From the sequence record NC_054929.1: DNA of 64,000 nt; one strand, written 5' to 3'. The notes under the pieces are model-generated. The model was given only the letters and a program-made list of their open reading frames with translations, had not been told where the DNA came from and ran no database searches. The stretch is from Escherichia phage PE37. Shown here piece by piece: positions 6,987 to 13,461 of the stretch. Position numbers and translations under genes: made by a program. Each line of letters begins with the position of its first letter. Positions within the stretch are counted from its first letter, which is position 1.

Positions 6987-7255
6987 TGTTTGTCGTTCAC
7001 ACTATTTATGAAAATGAAGGTAATACTACACGTGATTACGGTCACGTAAATCAATTTTTTAGATGCAATCCAGAATTTCGAGCTCAAAAAGACGAACGAA
7101 TTTTTAAAAAATGTGTAGAGCAAGGTTTCATTTACGTCAAGCACTGGATGCAAGGAAATAAAGTTAGAACAACGTACCACAGGTCTTTGACTGAGCTTAA
7201 TGATGAATTGATTTATAATAGAGCTGTAAACCAAACTCTAAAGGATGAACAATGA
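6986..7255 (+). CDS. hypothetical protein (89 aa)
   Basis: TAATG overlap. Confidence 0.5.
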   Translation: MFVVHTIYENEGNTTRDYGHVNQFFRCNPEFRAQKDERIFKKCVEQGFIYVKHWMQGNKVRTTYHRSLTELNDELIYNRAVNQTLKDEQ

Positions 7256-8718
7256 TTCTTAAAATTCTGAACGAAATAGCATCTATTGGTTCAACTAAGC
7301 AGAAGCAAGCAATTCTTGAAAAGAACAAAGATAATGAATTGCTTAAACGAGTATATCGTCTGACTTATTCTCGTGGGTTACAGTATTATATCAAGAAATG
7401 GCCTAAACCTGGTATTGCTACCCAGAGTTTTGGAATGCTGACCATTACCGATATGCTTGACTTCATTGAATTCACGTTAGCTACTCGGAAATTAACTGGC
7501 AATGCAGCAATTGAGGAATTAACTGGATATATCACCGATGGTAAAAAGGATGATGTTGAAGTTTTGCGTCGAGTTATGATGCGAGACCTTGAATGCGGTG
7601 CTTCAGTATCTATTGCAAACAAAGTTTGGCCAGGTTTAATTCCTGAACAACCTCAAATGCTGGCAAGTTCTTATGATGAAAAGGGCATTAGTAAGAATAT
7701 CAAATTTCCAGCCTTTGCACAGTTAAAAGCAGATGGAGCCCGGTGTTTTGCTGAAGTCCGAGGTGATGAATTAGATGATGTTCGTCTTTTATCACGAGCT
7801 GGTAATGAATATCTAGGATTAAACCTTCTCAAAGAAGAGTTAATCAAAATGACCGCTGAAGCTCGCCAGATTCATCCAGAAGGTGTGTTAATTGATGGCG
7901 AATTGGTAGTATACCATGAGCAAGTTGAAAAGGAGCCAGAAGGTCTAGATTTTCTTTTTGATGCTTATCCTGAAATTAGTAAAGCTAAAGAATTCGCTGA
8001 AGTAGCTGAATCACGTACTACTTCTAATGGAATAGCTAATAAATCTTTAAAGGGAACCATTTCTGAAAAAGAAGCACAATGCATGAAGTTTCAGGTCTGG
8101 GATTATGTTCCATTAGTAGAAATATACGGTCTTCCAGCATTTCGTTTGAAATATGATGTACGTTTTTCTAAACTAGAACAAATGACATCGGGATATGATA
8201 AAGTAATTTTAATTGAAAACCAGGTAGTAAATAACCTAGATGAAGCTAAGGTAATTTACAAAAAGTATATTGACCAAGGTCTTGAAGGTATTATTCTCAA
8301 AAATATCGATGGATTATGGGAAAATGCTCGTTCAAAAAATCTTTATAAATTTAAAGAAGTAATTGATGTTGATTTAAAAATTGTAGGAATTTATCCTCAC
8401 CGTAAAGACCCTACTAAAGCGGGTGGATTTATTCTTGAGTCAGAGTGTGGAAAAATTAAAGTAAATGCTGGTTCAGGCTTAAAAGATAAAGCCGGTGTAA
8501 AATCGCATGAACTTGACCGTACTCGCATTATGGAAAACCAAAATTATTATATTGGAAAAATTCTAGAGTGCGAATGCAACGGTTGGTTAAAATCTGATGG
8601 CCGCACTGATTACGTTAAATTATTTCTTCCAATTGCGATTCGTTTACGTGAAGATAAAACTAAAGCTAATACGTTCGAAGATGTATTTGGCGATTTTCAT
8701 GAGGTAACTGGTTTATGA
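7252..8718 (+). CDS. 30: ATP-dependent DNA ligase
   Basis: 488 aa; KADGAR adenylation motif; sequence matches my recollection of T4 DNA ligase. Confidence 0.95.
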   Translation: MILKILNEIASIGSTKQKQAILEKNKDNELLKRVYRLTYSRGLQYYIKKWPKPGIATQSFGMLTITDMLDFIEFTLATRKLTGNAAIEELTGYITDGKKDDVEVLRRVMMRDLECGASVSIANKVWPGLIPEQPQMLASSYDEKGISKNIKFPAFAQLKADGARCFAEVRGDELDDVRLLSRAGNEYLGLNLLKEELIKMTAEARQIHPEGVLIDGELVVYHEQVEKEPEGLDFLFDAYPEISKAKEFAEVAESRTTSNGIANKSLKGTISEKEAQCMKFQVWDYVPLVEIYGLPAFRLKYDVRFSKLEQMTSGYDKVILIENQVVNNLDEAKVIYKKYIDQGLEGIILKNIDGLWENARSKNLYKFKEVIDVDLKIVGIYPHRKDPTKAGGFILESECGKIKVNAGSGLKDKAGVKSHELDRTRIMENQNYYIGKILECECNGWLKSDGRTDYVKLFLPIAIRLREDKTKANTFEDVFGDFHEVTGL

Positions 8719-8903
8719 AAGCTTACTTAGAAACAATTGTCGTGGCTCAAAAAGAAGGTGGAGATGTTTCTACTTCTGTATCACAAATCATGATTGAATT
8801 TATAGATGCATATGCTTATAATAAATTCACAGAAACTTTTGATGCTTATGAAAAAGGTCCAAAGTTTGAAATATATCGTACTCTCTTACAAATAGATTAT
8901 TAA
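8715..8903 (+). CDS. hypothetical protein (62 aa)
   Basis: ATGA overlap with ligase; followed by terminator hairpin. Confidence 0.45.
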   Translation: MKAYLETIVVAQKEGGDVSTSVSQIMIEFIDAYAYNKFTETFDAYEKGPKFEIYRTLLQIDY

Positions 8904-8928
8904 AGGCCTTCGGGCCTTTAATTTTATA
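8903..8928 (+). terminator. intrinsic terminator
   Basis: AAGGCC-TTCG-GGCCTT hairpin followed by TAATTTTA. Confidence 0.65.
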
Positions 8929-8932
8929 AATA
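8925..8932 (+). promoter_or_regulatory. late promoter TATAAATA (alt)
   Basis: exact 8-mer 24 nt upstream of alt ATG, just after a terminator. Confidence 0.7.
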
Positions 8933-8955
8933 GAATAAACACTAGAGAGGATATG

Positions 8956-11049
8956 ATGGAACTCATTACAGAATTATTTGACGAAGATACTACTCTTCCG
9001 ATTACAAACTTAAATCCAAAGAAGAAAATACCACAAATTTTTTCAGTTCACGTTGATGATGCAATTGAACAACCAGGCTTTCGTTTATGTACCTATACAT
9101 CTGGAGGTGATACTAATCGCGATTTAAAGATGGGAGATAAAATGATGCATATTGTTCCTTTTACATTAACTGCTAAAGGTTCAATTGCTAAATTAAAAGG
9201 TCTGGGTCCAAGCCCGATTAATTATATCAATTCAGTTTTTACTGTTGCAATGCAAACAATGCGTCAATATAAAATTGATGCCTGTATGCTTCGTATTCTT
9301 AAGTCTAAAACTGCTGGCCAAGCTCGACAAATTCAAGTTATTGCTGATAGACTTATCCGTAGTCGTTCAGGTGGTAGATACGTCCTTCTTAAGGAACTCT
9401 GGGATTACGATAAAAAGTATGCATATATTCTTATACATCGCAAAAATGTATCACTAGAAGACATTCCAGGAGTTCCGGAAATTAGTACCGAGCTCTTTAC
9501 TAAAGTTGAATCGAAGGTCGGTGATGTTTATATCAATAAAGATACTGGAGCTCAAGTAACTAAAAATGAGGCAATTGCAGCATCTATTGCGCAAGAAAAT
9601 GATAAACGTTCTGACCAAGCTGTAATCGTTAAAGTTAAAATTTCACGTAGAGCAATTGCGCAAAGTCAATCATTGGAATCTTCTAGATTTGAAAGTGAAT
9701 TATTCCAGAAGTATGAATCTACCGCAGCTAATTTCAATAAACCTGCTACCGCTCCTTTAATTCCCGAAGCAGAAGAAATGAAGCTTGGAATTAATTCGTT
9801 AGCTTCTAAAACTAAGGCAGCAAAAATTATTGCTGAAGGAACTGCGAATGAACTTCACTATGACTATAAATTCTTTTCAAAAAGTGAGGTTGATGAAGTT
9901 TCAGAAAAAATTAAAGATGTAATTTTTAACGCAATCAAAAATGAACCAACTACTTCAATAAAATGTTTAGAGAAATACGCAGCAGCTGTTAATAAATTCT
10001 TTGAAGAATATAAAGATAATTGGCTTGATAAACATAATAAAACTCGTAAAGGGCAACCAGATGAAGTCTGGGGAGAAATAACTAAAAATGCATGGAATAC
10101 AGCAAAAACTAAATTCCTCAAACGAATGATTTATAGCTTTTCTGGAATTGGTGCTGGTCCAATGATTGATATTACTATTGCCCGTGATGGTTCTAAATAT
10201 ACTCCATCACAAAAGCGAGGTATTAGAGAATATTGTGGTTCAGGATATACAGACATTAATAATCTTCTTTTAGGTCGTTACAATCCAGAACGATATGATG
10301 TAATGAGTGAAAAAGAAATTGAATCTGCTATAAATAACTTAGATTCAGCTTTTGAAAATGGTGACCGTATACCAGAAGGCATTACAGTTTATCGTGCTCA
10401 AAGTATGACTGCTCCTATATATGAAGCGTTAGTTAAAAATAAAGTGTTCTATTTCAGAAATTTTGTATCTACTTCTTTAACTCCTATTATTTTTGGACGT
10501 TTTGGAATCACACATGCTGGTATTGGTCTTTTAGAACCAGAAGCTCGCAATGAATTAACAGTTGATAAAAATGAAGAAGGAATAACTATTAATCCAAACG
10601 AAATAAGAGCGTATAAAGAAAATCCTGAATACGTTAAAGTTCAAATAGGATGGGCAATTGATGGAGCTCATAAAGTTAATGTTGTATATCCAGGAAGTCT
10701 TGGAATAGCAACAGAAGCTGAAGTTATTCTACCGCGTGGATTGATGGTCAAAGTTAATAAAATAACTGATGCTTCTAATAATGACGGAACAACATCTAAT
10801 AATACAAAACTCATTCAAGCTGAAGTTATGACCACGGAAGAGCTCACCGAATCGGTAATCTATGATGGAGACCATTTAATGGAAACTGGTGAATTGGTTG
10901 CAATGACAGGTGATACTGAAATAGAAGACAGAGTTGACTTTGCATCATTTGTTTCATCAAATGTTAAACAGAAAGTCGAATCATCTCTTGGAATTATTGC
11001 GTCTTGCATAGATATTACAAACATGCCTTACAAGTTCGTTCAAGGATAA
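8956..11049 (+). CDS. alt: Alt ADP-ribosyltransferase (virion-packaged)
   Basis: N-terminus MELITELFD; R (YRAQ), STS and EAE motifs of the R-S-E ADP-ribosyltransferase fold; late promoter TATAAATA upstream. Confidence 0.9.
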   Translation: MELITELFDEDTTLPITNLNPKKKIPQIFSVHVDDAIEQPGFRLCTYTSGGDTNRDLKMGDKMMHIVPFTLTAKGSIAKLKGLGPSPINYINSVFTVAMQTMRQYKIDACMLRILKSKTAGQARQIQVIADRLIRSRSGGRYVLLKELWDYDKKYAYILIHRKNVSLEDIPGVPEISTELFTKVESKVGDVYINKDTGAQVTKNEAIAASIAQENDKRSDQAVIVKVKISRRAIAQSQSLESSRFESELFQKYESTAANFNKPATAPLIPEAEEMKLGINSLASKTKAAKIIAEGTANELHYDYKFFSKSEVDEVSEKIKDVIFNAIKNEPTTSIKCLEKYAAAVNKFFEEYKDNWLDKHNKTRKGQPDEVWGEITKNAWNTAKTKFLKRMIYSFSGIGAGPMIDITIARDGSKYTPSQKRGIREYCGSGYTDINNLLLGRYNPERYDVMSEKEIESAINNLDSAFENGDRIPEGITVYRAQSMTAPIYEALVKNKVFYFRNFVSTSLTPIIFGRFGITHAGIGLLEPEARNELTVDKNEEGITINPNEIRAYKENPEYVKVQIGWAIDGAHKVNVVYPGSLGIATEAEVILPRGLMVKVNKITDASNNDGTTSNNTKLIQAEVMTTEELTESVIYDGDHLMETGELVAMTGDTEIEDRVDFASFVSSNVKQKVESSLGIIASCIDITNMPYKFVQG

Positions 11050-11052
11050 ATC

Positions 11053-13110
11053 ATGGAACTTATTACAGAATTATTTGACGGCGCTTCGGCGCCGGTTGTT
11101 AACTTAAATCCTAAGCATAAAATACCACAAATTTTTGCTATTCAAGCCGGCGAAGAAAGCGTGCTTCCTGGATTTAGATTTTGTACATACACCTCTGGTG
11201 GTGATACGAATAAAAACGTTAAGCCAGGCGATAAAATGATGCATATCGTAATGATAGGTGTTAATGAGAAATTATCGTTAGTTAAGCTTAAAAACTTGGG
11301 TGGAAATCCAATTGGTGTCATTAATGCGGTTTTTGATACTGCTCTTCAAACAATGAAACAGTATAAAATTGATGCATGTTTATTCCGCGTACTAAAAAGT
11401 AAAACAAATGGCGCAGCTCGTCAAATGCAAGTTATTGCTGACCGTTTAGTACGTACTAAAGGAGCAGGTCGATATGTTCTTTTAAAGGAAATCTGGGATT
11501 ATGATAAAAAGTATGCATATATTATGGTTTACCGTAAAAATGCCAATTTAGAAGACATTCCAGGTGTACCTCCTATTTCAACTGAGTTATTCACAAAAGT
11601 TGAATCAAAGGTTGGTGATGTTTATGTAGACGTTAAAACAGGTAATGCTGTTCCTAAAGCTGTTGCTGTTGCCGCTTCTATTGCTTTAGAAAATGATAAG
11701 CGCACGGATCAAGCTGTTATTCAGAAAACTAAAATTAGTCGTCGATTAGCAGCACAAGCTCAATATTCTACTGTCGATGCTTCACTTCAGGGTGATAGCT
11801 TCGCCGCTAAGAAATATCAAGAGTTTGAATCTAAAGTTCCGGTATATAAAGCAGAAGGACCAATGAACTCTGGCGTTATTCAGATTGGTTCAAACTTCAG
11901 CAAAGGAGCTATCGGTGGTATGAGAAGTGCTTCTCGTTTTAAATCTAATGATTATGAACTAGAAAGTTTCCGAAATCATATTGCATTAGCCCATGCACGT
12001 TTACGCGATCCATCTATCAAGCTGCAGAGCGATACATCATATCAAGGTTCCCAGGAATATTTAAAGAATAAAGACTTCTTTAATTACAAAACTGATAAAA
12101 TTTTAAGCGATCTTGCTGATATTAATATTTCTAATAGTTTTGATGTTATTAAGAAAATTATCAATGATTTAGTTAAAGGTTCTAAAGCTACACCAGATGA
12201 AAAGACAGCTATTATTCAATTTGTAATGAATGGAATTTATAAATTAATTGATGAATCCGCTGCTCAGGCGTATGAATATGCAAGCACTGAAGTAACTCCA
12301 AAAGGATTAACTCAGGCTGAGTCCGATGTAATTGAAGATTATTGTGCAGATTCATATGTTGAAATGAACTCGTTCCTCTTGGGTAAACCAGATTCTACCC
12401 GTGAAGAATACATGGAACGAGCTATTAAACACATCGAGACAATGGATTCTGCCTTTGCCAAAGGATCAGTTCTTCCTCCAGGAACTACGCTTTATCGTGG
12501 ACAAGAAGTTACCTTTAAAACTTTACGTCATAATATTGAAAATAAAATGTTCTACTTCAAGAACTTCGTATCCACATCGCTTAAACCAAATATCTTCGGT
12601 GAGCATGGTAAAAACTATATGGCTCTAGATGATTCCGGTGCAGTATTTTCTGGTGAAGGAGAAGGTTCCGTTGATGCTGAAGATTTAATGCATATGGGTA
12701 GTCATTCTGCTTATGCGAATGAAGATGCTGAAACTAGCGTGGGTATGGTAATAAAAGGAGCTGAGCGAATTAAAGTTATCGTTCCAGGTCATTTATCAGG
12801 ATTTCCATCAGAAGCTGAAGTTATTCTACCGCGTGGAATTTTGCTGAAGATTAATAAAGTGAGTACTTACTTTATGAAAGAAACTGCTTATAACAAGTAT
12901 CTAATCGAAGGTACAATCGTTCCTCCTTCTGAACAATTAGAAGAATCAGTATATGATGGCGACCATCTAATGGAAACTGGTGAAGTTCGTCCAATGGCTG
13001 GATTTAATCAATTCCTTGTAGAAGAATCAAAAGAAGAGGAAAACGAAGTTTCTCAAATCTTAGCTTCTTTGGTTAACATCAACGGAATGTCTAAAAAGTT
13101 CAAGATGTAG
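11053..13110 (+). CDS. Alt-like ADP-ribosyltransferase paralog
   Basis: 685 aa; same MELITELFD N-terminus, conserved YRGQ/STS/EAEVILPRG motifs, divergent middle. Confidence 0.85.
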   Translation: MELITELFDGASAPVVNLNPKHKIPQIFAIQAGEESVLPGFRFCTYTSGGDTNKNVKPGDKMMHIVMIGVNEKLSLVKLKNLGGNPIGVINAVFDTALQTMKQYKIDACLFRVLKSKTNGAARQMQVIADRLVRTKGAGRYVLLKEIWDYDKKYAYIMVYRKNANLEDIPGVPPISTELFTKVESKVGDVYVDVKTGNAVPKAVAVAASIALENDKRTDQAVIQKTKISRRLAAQAQYSTVDASLQGDSFAAKKYQEFESKVPVYKAEGPMNSGVIQIGSNFSKGAIGGMRSASRFKSNDYELESFRNHIALAHARLRDPSIKLQSDTSYQGSQEYLKNKDFFNYKTDKILSDLADINISNSFDVIKKIINDLVKGSKATPDEKTAIIQFVMNGIYKLIDESAAQAYEYASTEVTPKGLTQAESDVIEDYCADSYVEMNSFLLGKPDSTREEYMERAIKHIETMDSAFAKGSVLPPGTTLYRGQEVTFKTLRHNIENKMFYFKNFVSTSLKPNIFGEHGKNYMALDDSGAVFSGEGEGSVDAEDLMHMGSHSAYANEDAETSVGMVIKGAERIKVIVPGHLSGFPSEAEVILPRGILLKINKVSTYFMKETAYNKYLIEGTIVPPSEQLEESVYDGDHLMETGEVRPMAGFNQFLVEESKEEENEVSQILASLVNINGMSKKFKM

Positions 13111-13162
13111 TTTACAAGGCCCTCATGTTGTGTTATAGTAGTCTTACTGACACAACATGAGG
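13110..13162 (+). promoter_or_regulatory. early promoter with stem-loop (PeSL-like), 12-bp perfect inverted repeat
   Basis: GTTTAC at 13110-13115, TGtTATAGT -10 at 13134-13139; IR CCTCATGTTGTG (13121-13132) / CACAACATGAGG (13151-13162). Confidence 0.65.
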
Positions 13163-13170
13163 AACACAAA

Positions 13171-13461
13171 ATGAAATCTTCTTTGCGCTTTTTAGGTCAA
13201 GAACTCGTCGTTGAAGGCGTTATTCCCGCTGATAACGCTTTCAATGAAGCAGTTTACGATGAATTTATCAAAATTTTTGGAACAGATAAAAAGTTCGGAA
13301 TTTTTCCTTCTGAAAATTTTTCAAAGCCAGAACAGACTGAAAGTATTTTTCAGGGTGTAGTAACAGGTAAATTTGAGTCAGAAGCTCCGGTAAAAATTGA
13401 AGTTTATATTGAAGAAACCTCTGTTGCTTCAGTTGCTGCTTTTATTTCATTCCGTAAATAA
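13171..13461 (+). CDS. hypothetical protein (96 aa)
   Basis: ATG after early promoter/stem-loop cassette; followed by bidirectional terminator. Confidence 0.5.
   Translation: MKSSLRFLGQELVVEGVIPADNAFNEAVYDEFIKIFGTDKKFGIFPSENFSKPEQTESIFQGVVTGKFESEAPVKIEVYIEETSVASVAAFISFRK

Follow-up and report, generated by a model that had tools for sequence, protein, structure and literature searches.

The alt/alt.-2 locus

The window analysed here is a stretch of 64,000 nucleotides (nt) from Escherichia phage PE37 (sequence record NC_054929.1), and the segment considered is T-even (Tequatrovirus) phage DNA. Two tandem genes, alt and alt.-2, are found in it between DNA ligase and alt.1 on one side and alt.-3 and gp54 on the other, and their products are related to Alt of phage T4, an ADP-ribosyltransferase (ART). 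A preliminary description of this DNA had reported two adjacent open reading frames (ORFs) of about 690 amino acids (aa), which was borne out, since both were found intact (697 or 698 aa and 685 aa). The two genes and the ribosome-binding site of the second are the following.

8956-11049, + strand: alt, 697 aa, T2/RB32-type allele, with N domain, helical centre, ART domain and C-terminal propeptide
11042-11046, + strand: Shine-Dalgarno sequence AAGGA for alt.-2, within the last codons of alt
11053-13110, + strand: alt.-2 ("Alt2"), 685 aa, full-length second paralogue

An alternative start of alt at 8953 would give a protein of 698 aa. The start at 8956 is the better one, because the GAGG at 8947-8950 lies 5 nt from the ATG at 8956 and only 2 nt from that at 8953. 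The stop codon of alt (11047-11049) and the ATG of alt.-2 (11053) are separated by a gap of 3 nt, and the same spacing is seen in RB32, T2, the Dhakavirus dhaeg and the divergent relative L008. On the opposite strand of alt and alt.-2, no ORF longer than 85 aa was found.

Domain architecture and similarity of the two proteins

Both genes encode an arginine ADP-ribosyltransferase domain of the Alt/VIP2 type with the R-S-ExE motifs. The parts of the two proteins are listed below; gp21 is the prohead protease.

8956-9669, + strand: N-terminal domain of alt, aa 1-238, including the propeptide MELITE
8965-8973, + strand: ITE-6 of alt, gp21 cleavage motif, aligned with the T4 site
9670-10086, + strand: central all-helical segment of alt, with no detectable similarity to the centre of alt.-2
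10087-10836, + strand: ART domain of alt, PF03496, aa 378-627
10390-10401, + strand: YRAQ of alt, aa 479-482
10468-10476, + strand: STS of alt, aa 505-507
10714-10740, + strand: EAEVILPRG of alt, aa 587-595
10843-11046, + strand: LTE of alt, aa 630-632 (equivalent of T4 LTE-619), and the 65-aa C-terminal propeptide starting SVIYDGDHLMETGE
11053-11769, + strand: N-terminal domain of alt.-2, aa 1-239
11062-11070, + strand: ITE-6 motif of alt.-2, aligned with the T4 site
11770-12297, + strand: central helical segment of alt.-2, homologous to the centres of the second ART genes of Dhakavirus (43%) and L008 (59%), not to that of alt
12298-12912, + strand: ART domain of alt.-2, PF03496, aa 416-620
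12493-12504, + strand: YRGQ of alt.-2, aa 481-484
12571-12579, + strand: STS of alt.-2, aa 507-509
12811-12837, + strand: EAEVILPRG of alt.-2, aa 587-595
12937-13107, + strand: LEE of alt.-2, aa 629-631 (aligned with T4 LTE-619), and the 54-aa C-terminal tail starting SVYDGDHLMETGE

The Pfam family PF03496, with a gathering cut-off of 23.4 bits, matched both proteins (alt, E = 3.8e-37, 128 bits; alt.-2, E = 5.9e-20, 71.9 bits), phrog_802 matched both from end to end (7e-273 and 1e-255), and PF26846 (Tevenvirinae_ADPRT) is recorded on close homologues (98% identity). In an alignment of 17 family members, R, S-x-S and E-x-E were invariant and in the right order. The E-x-E of the alt ART domain aligned with that of CdtA (GEYEV) and of iota toxin, and the window proteins were found to have the ART fold. 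The preliminary description had called both copies full-length Alt-type enzymes with intact motifs, and this holds: R, STS and EAE were seen in each, and the second copy has not lost its catalytic residues, as it carries YRGQ, STS and EAE.

No solved structure was matched by alt.-2 in a sequence search, and alt matched the ART domains of binary toxins only weakly. The AlphaFold2 (AF2) model of alt.-2, with a predicted local distance difference test score (pLDDT) of 77 and a predicted template modelling score (pTM) of 0.70, is composed of an alpha/beta N domain, a helical centre and an ART domain; its pLDDT is below 50 over aa 630-685, confidence being lost exactly from residue 630. The model of alt has the same layout, with pLDDT below 50 from aa 652 on, and both centres are predicted to be all-helical and of similar length. 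The R-S-E toxins C3, VIP2, iota-Ia and Vis lack the helical centre of the phage proteins and their 238-aa N domain, which is restricted to T4-like phages; they have a secretion signal or a B-component-binding domain, in place of which the phage Alts have propeptides cleaved by gp21.

Over their full length the two window proteins were 42% identical (BLASTP, E = 4e-161), and this identity is unevenly spread. The N domain (aa 1-238) is 68% identical overall, with 53-80% in blocks of 30 residues, so that the shared N-terminal part, given earlier as about 215 aa, is present and slightly longer, at 238 aa. The central region (aa ~239-460) is only 17-35% identical. That the central segments are unrelated, as the preliminary description had it, holds at the sequence level: compared alone, the centres gave E = 12 in BLASTP and a probability of 1% (E = 0.05) when two sub-alignments were compared with hhalign, and hidden homology between them was dropped as a candidate, nothing being detectable by either program. 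The ART domains are only 33-37% identical, with islands at 40-57%, and the C-terminal tails only 43%. Two short blocks, EAEVILPRG and YDGDHLMETGE, are nearly identical in both proteins.

Module exchange within the locus

The order ligase, alt.1, ART, ART, alt.-3, gp54 is also found in Dhakavirus (dhaeg genes 62 and 63) and in Moonvirus (CF1). The N domains of these phages are only 42-46% identical to those of the window and group within each lineage, and the first Moonvirus gene carries a third type of module. A Mosigvirus carries a single ART gene at the locus. For the second ART gene of Citrobacter phage CF1 (L012, 3501-5623), two overlapping ORFs of 392 and 315 aa are annotated; the cause is a frameshift, or else the gene codes for a "split" Alt of the kind named in Acinetobacter phages.

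A domain-wise phylogeny, as proposed in the preliminary description, was carried out on ten sequences that included Dhakavirus (dhaeg), Moonvirus (CF1) and a Mosigvirus. The trees were mutually incompatible, with bootstrap values of 94-100%; N domains were sorted by lineage, and centres and ART domains by gene position. In the N-domain tree, Tequatrovirus copies 1 and 2 clustered together (94%), as did Dhakavirus copies 1 and 2 with the Mosigvirus (100%). In the trees of the centre and of the ART domain, all alt.-2-type copies came together (100%), as did all alt-type copies (100%). The window alt module paired with Dhakavirus gene 1 (100%), with which it shares 64% identity in the centre and 82% in the ART domain; with T4 alt it shares 31% in the centre. 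The N domain of window alt is 100% identical to that of T4 and 46% identical to that of Dhakavirus.

T4 Alt (682 aa), a head-packaged, injected NAD+--arginine ADP-ribosyltransferase, has the same locus, architecture and late promoter position as window alt. In addition to the N domain, the C-terminal tail is 97% identical, and the R-S-ExE residues and the ITE-6/LTE motifs are common to both, though the E-x-E reads EME in T4 and EAE in the window. Between these ends the two genes differ; compared with T4 alt (L002, 1949-3997), window alt has a centre for which no nucleotide alignment could be made and an ART domain 74% identical in nucleotides and 66% in amino acids. As a whole, window alt is 97% identical in nucleotides to the alt genes of RB32, RB14 and T2 and 72% identical in amino acids to T4-type Alt. 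The two Tequatrovirus alt alleles share their first 807 nt (95%) and last ~330 nt (88-91%) but not the middle, and a nucleotide search gave 316 records with the T2-type (window) alt module and 175 with the T4-type. The biochemistry of Alt, including ADP-ribosylation of the alpha subunit of RNA polymerase, was done on the T4 allele only, and window alt is of the T2/RB32 type. In the phage collection as a whole, Alt homologues match at 1,832 places in about 1,200 records.

The simplest reading of these trees is that there are two ancient types of enzyme module, that the paralogues of a lineage had their N domains homogenised or else the N domain is lineage-resident, and that modules are exchanged by recombination in conserved flanks. 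The patchy identity of the two copies has three sources: constraint on shared functions (propeptides, N domain and motifs of the NAD site), ancient homogenisation or lineage-residency of the N domain, and cassette-like exchange of the centre plus ART module.

Recombination between the two genes can also be seen directly. A single gene stands between alt.1 and alt.-3 in phage SCS4 and in the assembled contigs L006 and L007, and in these three loci the informative sites are of the alt type up to a clean crossover, at nt 453-475, 546-558 and 150-159 respectively, and of the alt.-2 type after it. The SCS4 crossover (nt 453-475) lies on a 21-nt identical stretch encoding DKKYAYI; in the window this identity is found within the N domains (9409-9429 = 11503-11523). 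A fourth chimeric protein, P0007, switches from alt to alt.-2 near aa 222. Assembly collapse is an unlikely origin of the chimeras, since no exact identity between the copies in the window exceeds 29 bases. The shared N domain still supports unequal crossing-over, from which single alt::alt.-2 chimeras and, independently of them, the 1.7-kb deletion allele of T4 described below have arisen.

The N domain was found in 69 clusters among 1.84 billion representative proteins, most of them Alt-like and 600-710 aa long, and in every listed match it begins within ~50 residues of the N terminus. Four of the eight unusual N-domain proteins that were scanned carry a Pfam ART domain above threshold. The idea that the N domain is a general delivery module on other effectors was rejected, nearly all of the 69 clusters being ART proteins and P0184 an ambiguous exception. 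This distant protein (541 aa) has an Alt-like N domain, no match to an ART profile and no visible R-S-E motifs. Another distant protein with an Alt-like N domain, P0183 (485 aa), has a shortened ART-like end in which Y-K-N replaces Y-R-G. The two may be non-ART or degenerate cargo on an Alt-like N domain.

Expression, processing and packaging

The signals that bear on expression of the pair are the following.

8902-8919, + strand: terminator-like hairpin AAAGGCC-TTCG-GGCCTTT with a T-rich run, GC-rich, after alt.1
8925-8932, + strand: T4-type late promoter TATAAATA, with the alt start 24 nt farther on; phage Lutter has an annotated promoter at this position
10329-10336, + strand: second TATAAATA, inside alt, as codons for A-I-N-N, 717 nt upstream of alt.-2

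The 8902-8919 stem was listed by the scan on the - strand as well. In Lutter the corresponding position carries an annotated terminator, and it was reported that a terminator upstream of alt is conserved in five of six genomes (Nolan 2006; PMC1524935). The preliminary description had assigned a late promoter to the first copy only. The promoter at 8925-8932 was confirmed, with the caveat of the second TATAAATA at 10329-10336. The internal copy is present in the four other Tequatroviruses with full alt.-2 that were compared (RB32, T2, WilhelmHis and AndreasVesalius) and absent from T4 and Lutter, in both of which alt.-2 is deleted, and from L008, a small and non-independent sample, and it could be a secondary late start or a coincidence. 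No dedicated alt.-2 promoter was found in the 3-nt gap, and a scan for sigma-70 patterns was at background (21 found, 20 expected).

T4 Alt belongs to the prohead core, and ~40 copies of it are injected with the DNA (PMC9026906; PMC5512222). The protein is cut by gp21 after ITE-6 and LTE-619 (PMC5694885). LTE 617-619 of T4 Alt aligned with LTE 630-632 of alt and LEE 629-631 of alt.-2, and in all three proteins the L-x-E is followed by S-V-(I)-Y-D-G-D-H-L-M-E-T-G-E. Both window proteins thus have gp21 motifs at both ends, ITE-6 and an L-x-E ~55-65 residues from the C terminus. As both cleavage motifs of Alt are conserved in Alt.-2, the latter is probably packaged in the head and injected too.

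A course of events can be proposed from these features. The late promoter at 8925-8932 would give one bicistronic mRNA for both proteins, as suggested by the 3-nt gap and by the Shine-Dalgarno sequence that alt.-2 has of its own. Both proteins would enter the prohead core through the shared N domain, the propeptides or both, and gp21 would trim them after ITE-6 and after the L-x-E at about aa 631 to mature forms of ~69-70 kDa. Injected with the DNA, they would then ADP-ribosylate arginines on different sets of host proteins, since the centres and the ART surfaces of Alt and Alt.-2 differ.

It has to be asked whether Alt.-2 could instead be an active enzyme that is neither packaged nor injected, and that acts late in the producing cell, on phage proteins or solely in partnership with Alt. 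The literature was found to hold no proteomic data for Alt.-2, ModA and ModB are examples of T4-type ARTs that can act unpackaged (PMC5512222), and the low identity of the C-terminal tails of Alt and Alt.-2 would fit such a role. The N domain of Alt.-2, however, is of a kind found almost only at Alt-like N termini, the two gp21 motifs and the conserved start of the C-propeptide are common to Alt and Alt.-2, and alt.-2 is presumably co-transcribed behind a late promoter beside baseplate genes. Moreover, chimeras with the alt N domain on an alt.-2 body are maintained as the sole Alt-type gene at the locus. An unpackaged Alt.-2 is hence considered unlikely, and packaging of both enzymes is preferred.

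Distribution, the T4 deletion and selection

The 4.8-kb locus is 97% identical in nucleotides to that of RB32, RB33, RB14, RB51, RB68 and others, and 343 records cover at least 80% of it. Full-length alt.-2 was found in about 400 of the 498 matching phage records, or about four fifths, T2 among them. In RB32 the genes are named alt and alt.-2, the second with the note "similar to alt"; RefSeq names both "Alt-like RNA polymerase ADP-ribosyltransferase", and the BASEL records label the second gene "ADP-ribosyltransferase Alt2". In 2006, Nolan et al. listed alt.-1 and alt.-2 of T4 as paralogous duplications of alt and reported a full-length alt duplicate in phage 44RR (PMC1524935). The pair is thus the ordinary alt/alt.-2 locus of T-even phages, already annotated and not new. 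The novelty implied by the preliminary description could not be upheld, as the pair mirrors a known conserved arrangement that is annotated in hundreds of genomes and noted in the same paper.

The window alt.-2 is the same gene as that of RB14, RB32, RB51, T2 and the BASEL phages. Its product is 99.6% identical to that of RB14 and 98.2% to that of RB32 at 100% coverage, and these phages have the same 685 aa, the second tandem position and the 3-nt spacing, with ~3% nucleotide divergence that is almost all synonymous. For the locus as a whole, the best nucleotide identity to any record is 97% and that of the proteins 98-99.6%, the differences being almost all synonymous; the phage collection searched therefore does not contain this exact phage.

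In T4, alt is followed by the ORFs alt.-1 and alt.-2 of 61 and 67 aa, which agrees with the preliminary description, where T4 was given a single 682-aa Alt followed by small ORFs. Nucleotides 1-347 of the T4 remnant are 95.7% identical to nt 1-348 of window alt.-2 and are joined directly to its last 20 nt, and the PHROG families 23015 and 15247, to which the small ORFs belong, match aa 1-56 and 62-117 of window alt.-2. Judging from these alignments, the two small ORFs are what is left of alt.-2 after an internal deletion of ~1.69 kb and a frameshift; they have the same origin as the window gene, which is intact. The deletion junction was found in 91 records against about 400 with full-length alt.-2, and T4 thus represents a minority state.

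In a comparison of five phages, the ratio of nonsynonymous to synonymous substitution rates (dN/dS) was 0.007-0.047 for alt.-2 and 0.03-0.076 for alt, with a synonymous divergence (dS) of 0.1-0.2 for alt.-2. As the ratio is low in all three regions, it was concluded that both genes are functional and under strong purifying selection. This bears on the suggestion that alt.-2 is a redundant or decaying duplicate heading towards the T4 state, for which it can be said that T4 and 90 other records carry the deletion remnant and are viable, that single-gene chimeric phages exist, that the second gene of CF1 is split into two ORFs and that alt itself is non-essential in T4 (PMC9026906). Against the low dN/dS in every region of alt.-2, its intact state in about 400 records, a position conserved across three genera and catalytic residues that are all invariant, decay is regarded as very improbable.

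Age of the pair

The divergence between the two copies was saturated at synonymous sites in every segment, dS being 1.4 for the N domain and 1.0-1.1 for the rest. The tandem pair is also found in L008, whose N domains are 89% and 93% identical to their positional orthologues and 65-68% to their own neighbour. The pair is old, and it is present in Tequatrovirus, Dhakavirus and Moonvirus with centre and ART domain orthologous by position.

The preliminary description had taken an identical 29-nt stretch in both copies as a sign of recent duplication or gene conversion. The stretch exists, at 10712-10740 in the first copy and at 12809-12837 in the second, one base off the position given earlier, and the same diagonal holds further exact matches, 17-21 nt in length. 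It spans nine invariant catalytic codons (EAEVILPRG), and these form the longest run of identical codons between the copies, for which a permutation that shuffled codon identity within amino-acid classes gave p = 0.063. Where the residues are identical, the codon was the same in a fraction of 0.56, and codon usage predicts 0.51. Near-identity of this stretch between the two gene lineages is also seen in RB32, T2 and Lutter; one or two changes make it shorter in RB32 and T2 (CGC GGG or CGC GGA in alt, CGT GGA in alt.-2), so the identity is not specific to the window genome. It was hence rejected as a conversion tract, being within chance and near-identical in other phages. Of the two forms of gene conversion only the older one stood, as the N domains group by lineage with 94-100% bootstrap.

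A recent tandem duplication, or recent conversion between the copies in the window genome, is thus largely refuted already and highly improbable, even though exact matches share a diagonal, the proportion of synonymous differences (pS) within the genome (0.63) is slightly below that between paralogues of different genomes (0.72) and paralogues recombine in nature, for it is contradicted by the saturated dS, by chance-level codon identity, by the catalytic block that the 29-nt stretch encodes and its near-identity in other phages, and by the L008 orthologues, which are far closer than the paralogues.

Function and significance

The best explanation overall, and in our judgement quite a probable one, is an old and conserved Tequatrovirus alt/alt.-2 locus, the two enzymes of which would be made late, packaged, trimmed and injected, and would act on different targets. 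Several points weigh against it. No experimental report on the expression, packaging, cleavage or enzyme activity of Alt.-2 was found in the literature, and on Alt2 function or virion proteomics only Nolan 2006 was found. The L-x-E motifs are short and their conservation could reflect something else, and the claim of different targets rests on sequence divergence only. There is no promoter adjacent to alt.-2, and the internal TATAAATA at 10329 might give a separate transcript. The grouping of N domains by lineage could partly reflect co-evolution with lineage-specific head proteins rather than conversion, the domain trees rest on only 10 sequences, and two of the three mapped chimera loci, as well as P0007, come from metagenome or read-archive assemblies.

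In the preliminary description, target specificity was placed in the central region, which is plausible; the ART domains have themselves diverged so far (33-37% identity) that they could equally determine it. According to a preprint (10.1101/2025.11.20.689424), the Mokosh type I defence system is counteracted by T4 Alt and not by the Alt variant that phage Bas37 carries. A more specific proposal, which is tentative and to which we give rather less than an even chance, is that Alt.-2 is a second injected "warhead" that T4 has lost, a module of the Dhakavirus/Moonvirus type directed at other host targets, possibly a defence system, in a cassette locus where the N domains, as delivery domains matched to the lineage, are kept alike by conversion and modules are swapped between genera through recombination in the conserved flanks.

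In the form that the preliminary description gave it, the finding adds nothing beyond genome annotation, and its remaining value lies in the function of Alt2 and in the modular mosaic of the locus. What is known of Alt rests on T4, which has a minority alt allele and a deleted alt.-2. Most T-even phages probably inject two different ADP-ribosyltransferases, and what experiments have shown for T4 Alt may not apply to window-type alt. Since the preprint indicates that Alt alleles differ in their action against a defence system, it is reasonable to regard Alt2 and the exchangeable enzyme modules as candidate determinants of host range or anti-defence. Either module can be carried by the N domain, as the natural alt::alt.-2 chimeras suggest, and this could serve engineered protein delivery by T4-type heads.

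Flanking genes and the alt.-2/alt.-3 spacer

On the + strand, the gene order in the window is gene 30 (DNA ligase), alt.1, the GC hairpin, the late promoter, alt, alt.-2 and alt.-3, and the baseplate genes 54 and 48 lie beyond alt.-3 on the - strand. The flanking genes of the + strand are the following.

7252-8718, + strand: gene 30, DNA ligase
8715-8903, + strand: alt.1
13171-13461, + strand: alt.-3, 96 aa, DUF5498, directly 3' of alt.-2

It was reported that mutations of T4 alt.-3 that extend the C terminus allow escape from the CmdTAC defence system (PMC11618068). In the spacer between alt.-2 and alt.-3, a T4-early-like promoter, TTTACA-17-TATAGT (13111-13139), lies within a strong hairpin (13121-13162; -25.1 kcal/mol, z = -3.6), and the Shine-Dalgarno sequence GAGG of alt.-3 (13159-13162) is covered by its 3' arm. 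RB32, T4, T2, Lutter and the BASEL phages all retain the stem, in part by G-U pairing. A late mRNA reading through from alt/alt.-2 would hide the ribosome site of alt.-3, and a transcript from the internal promoter, without the 5' arm, would leave the site open.

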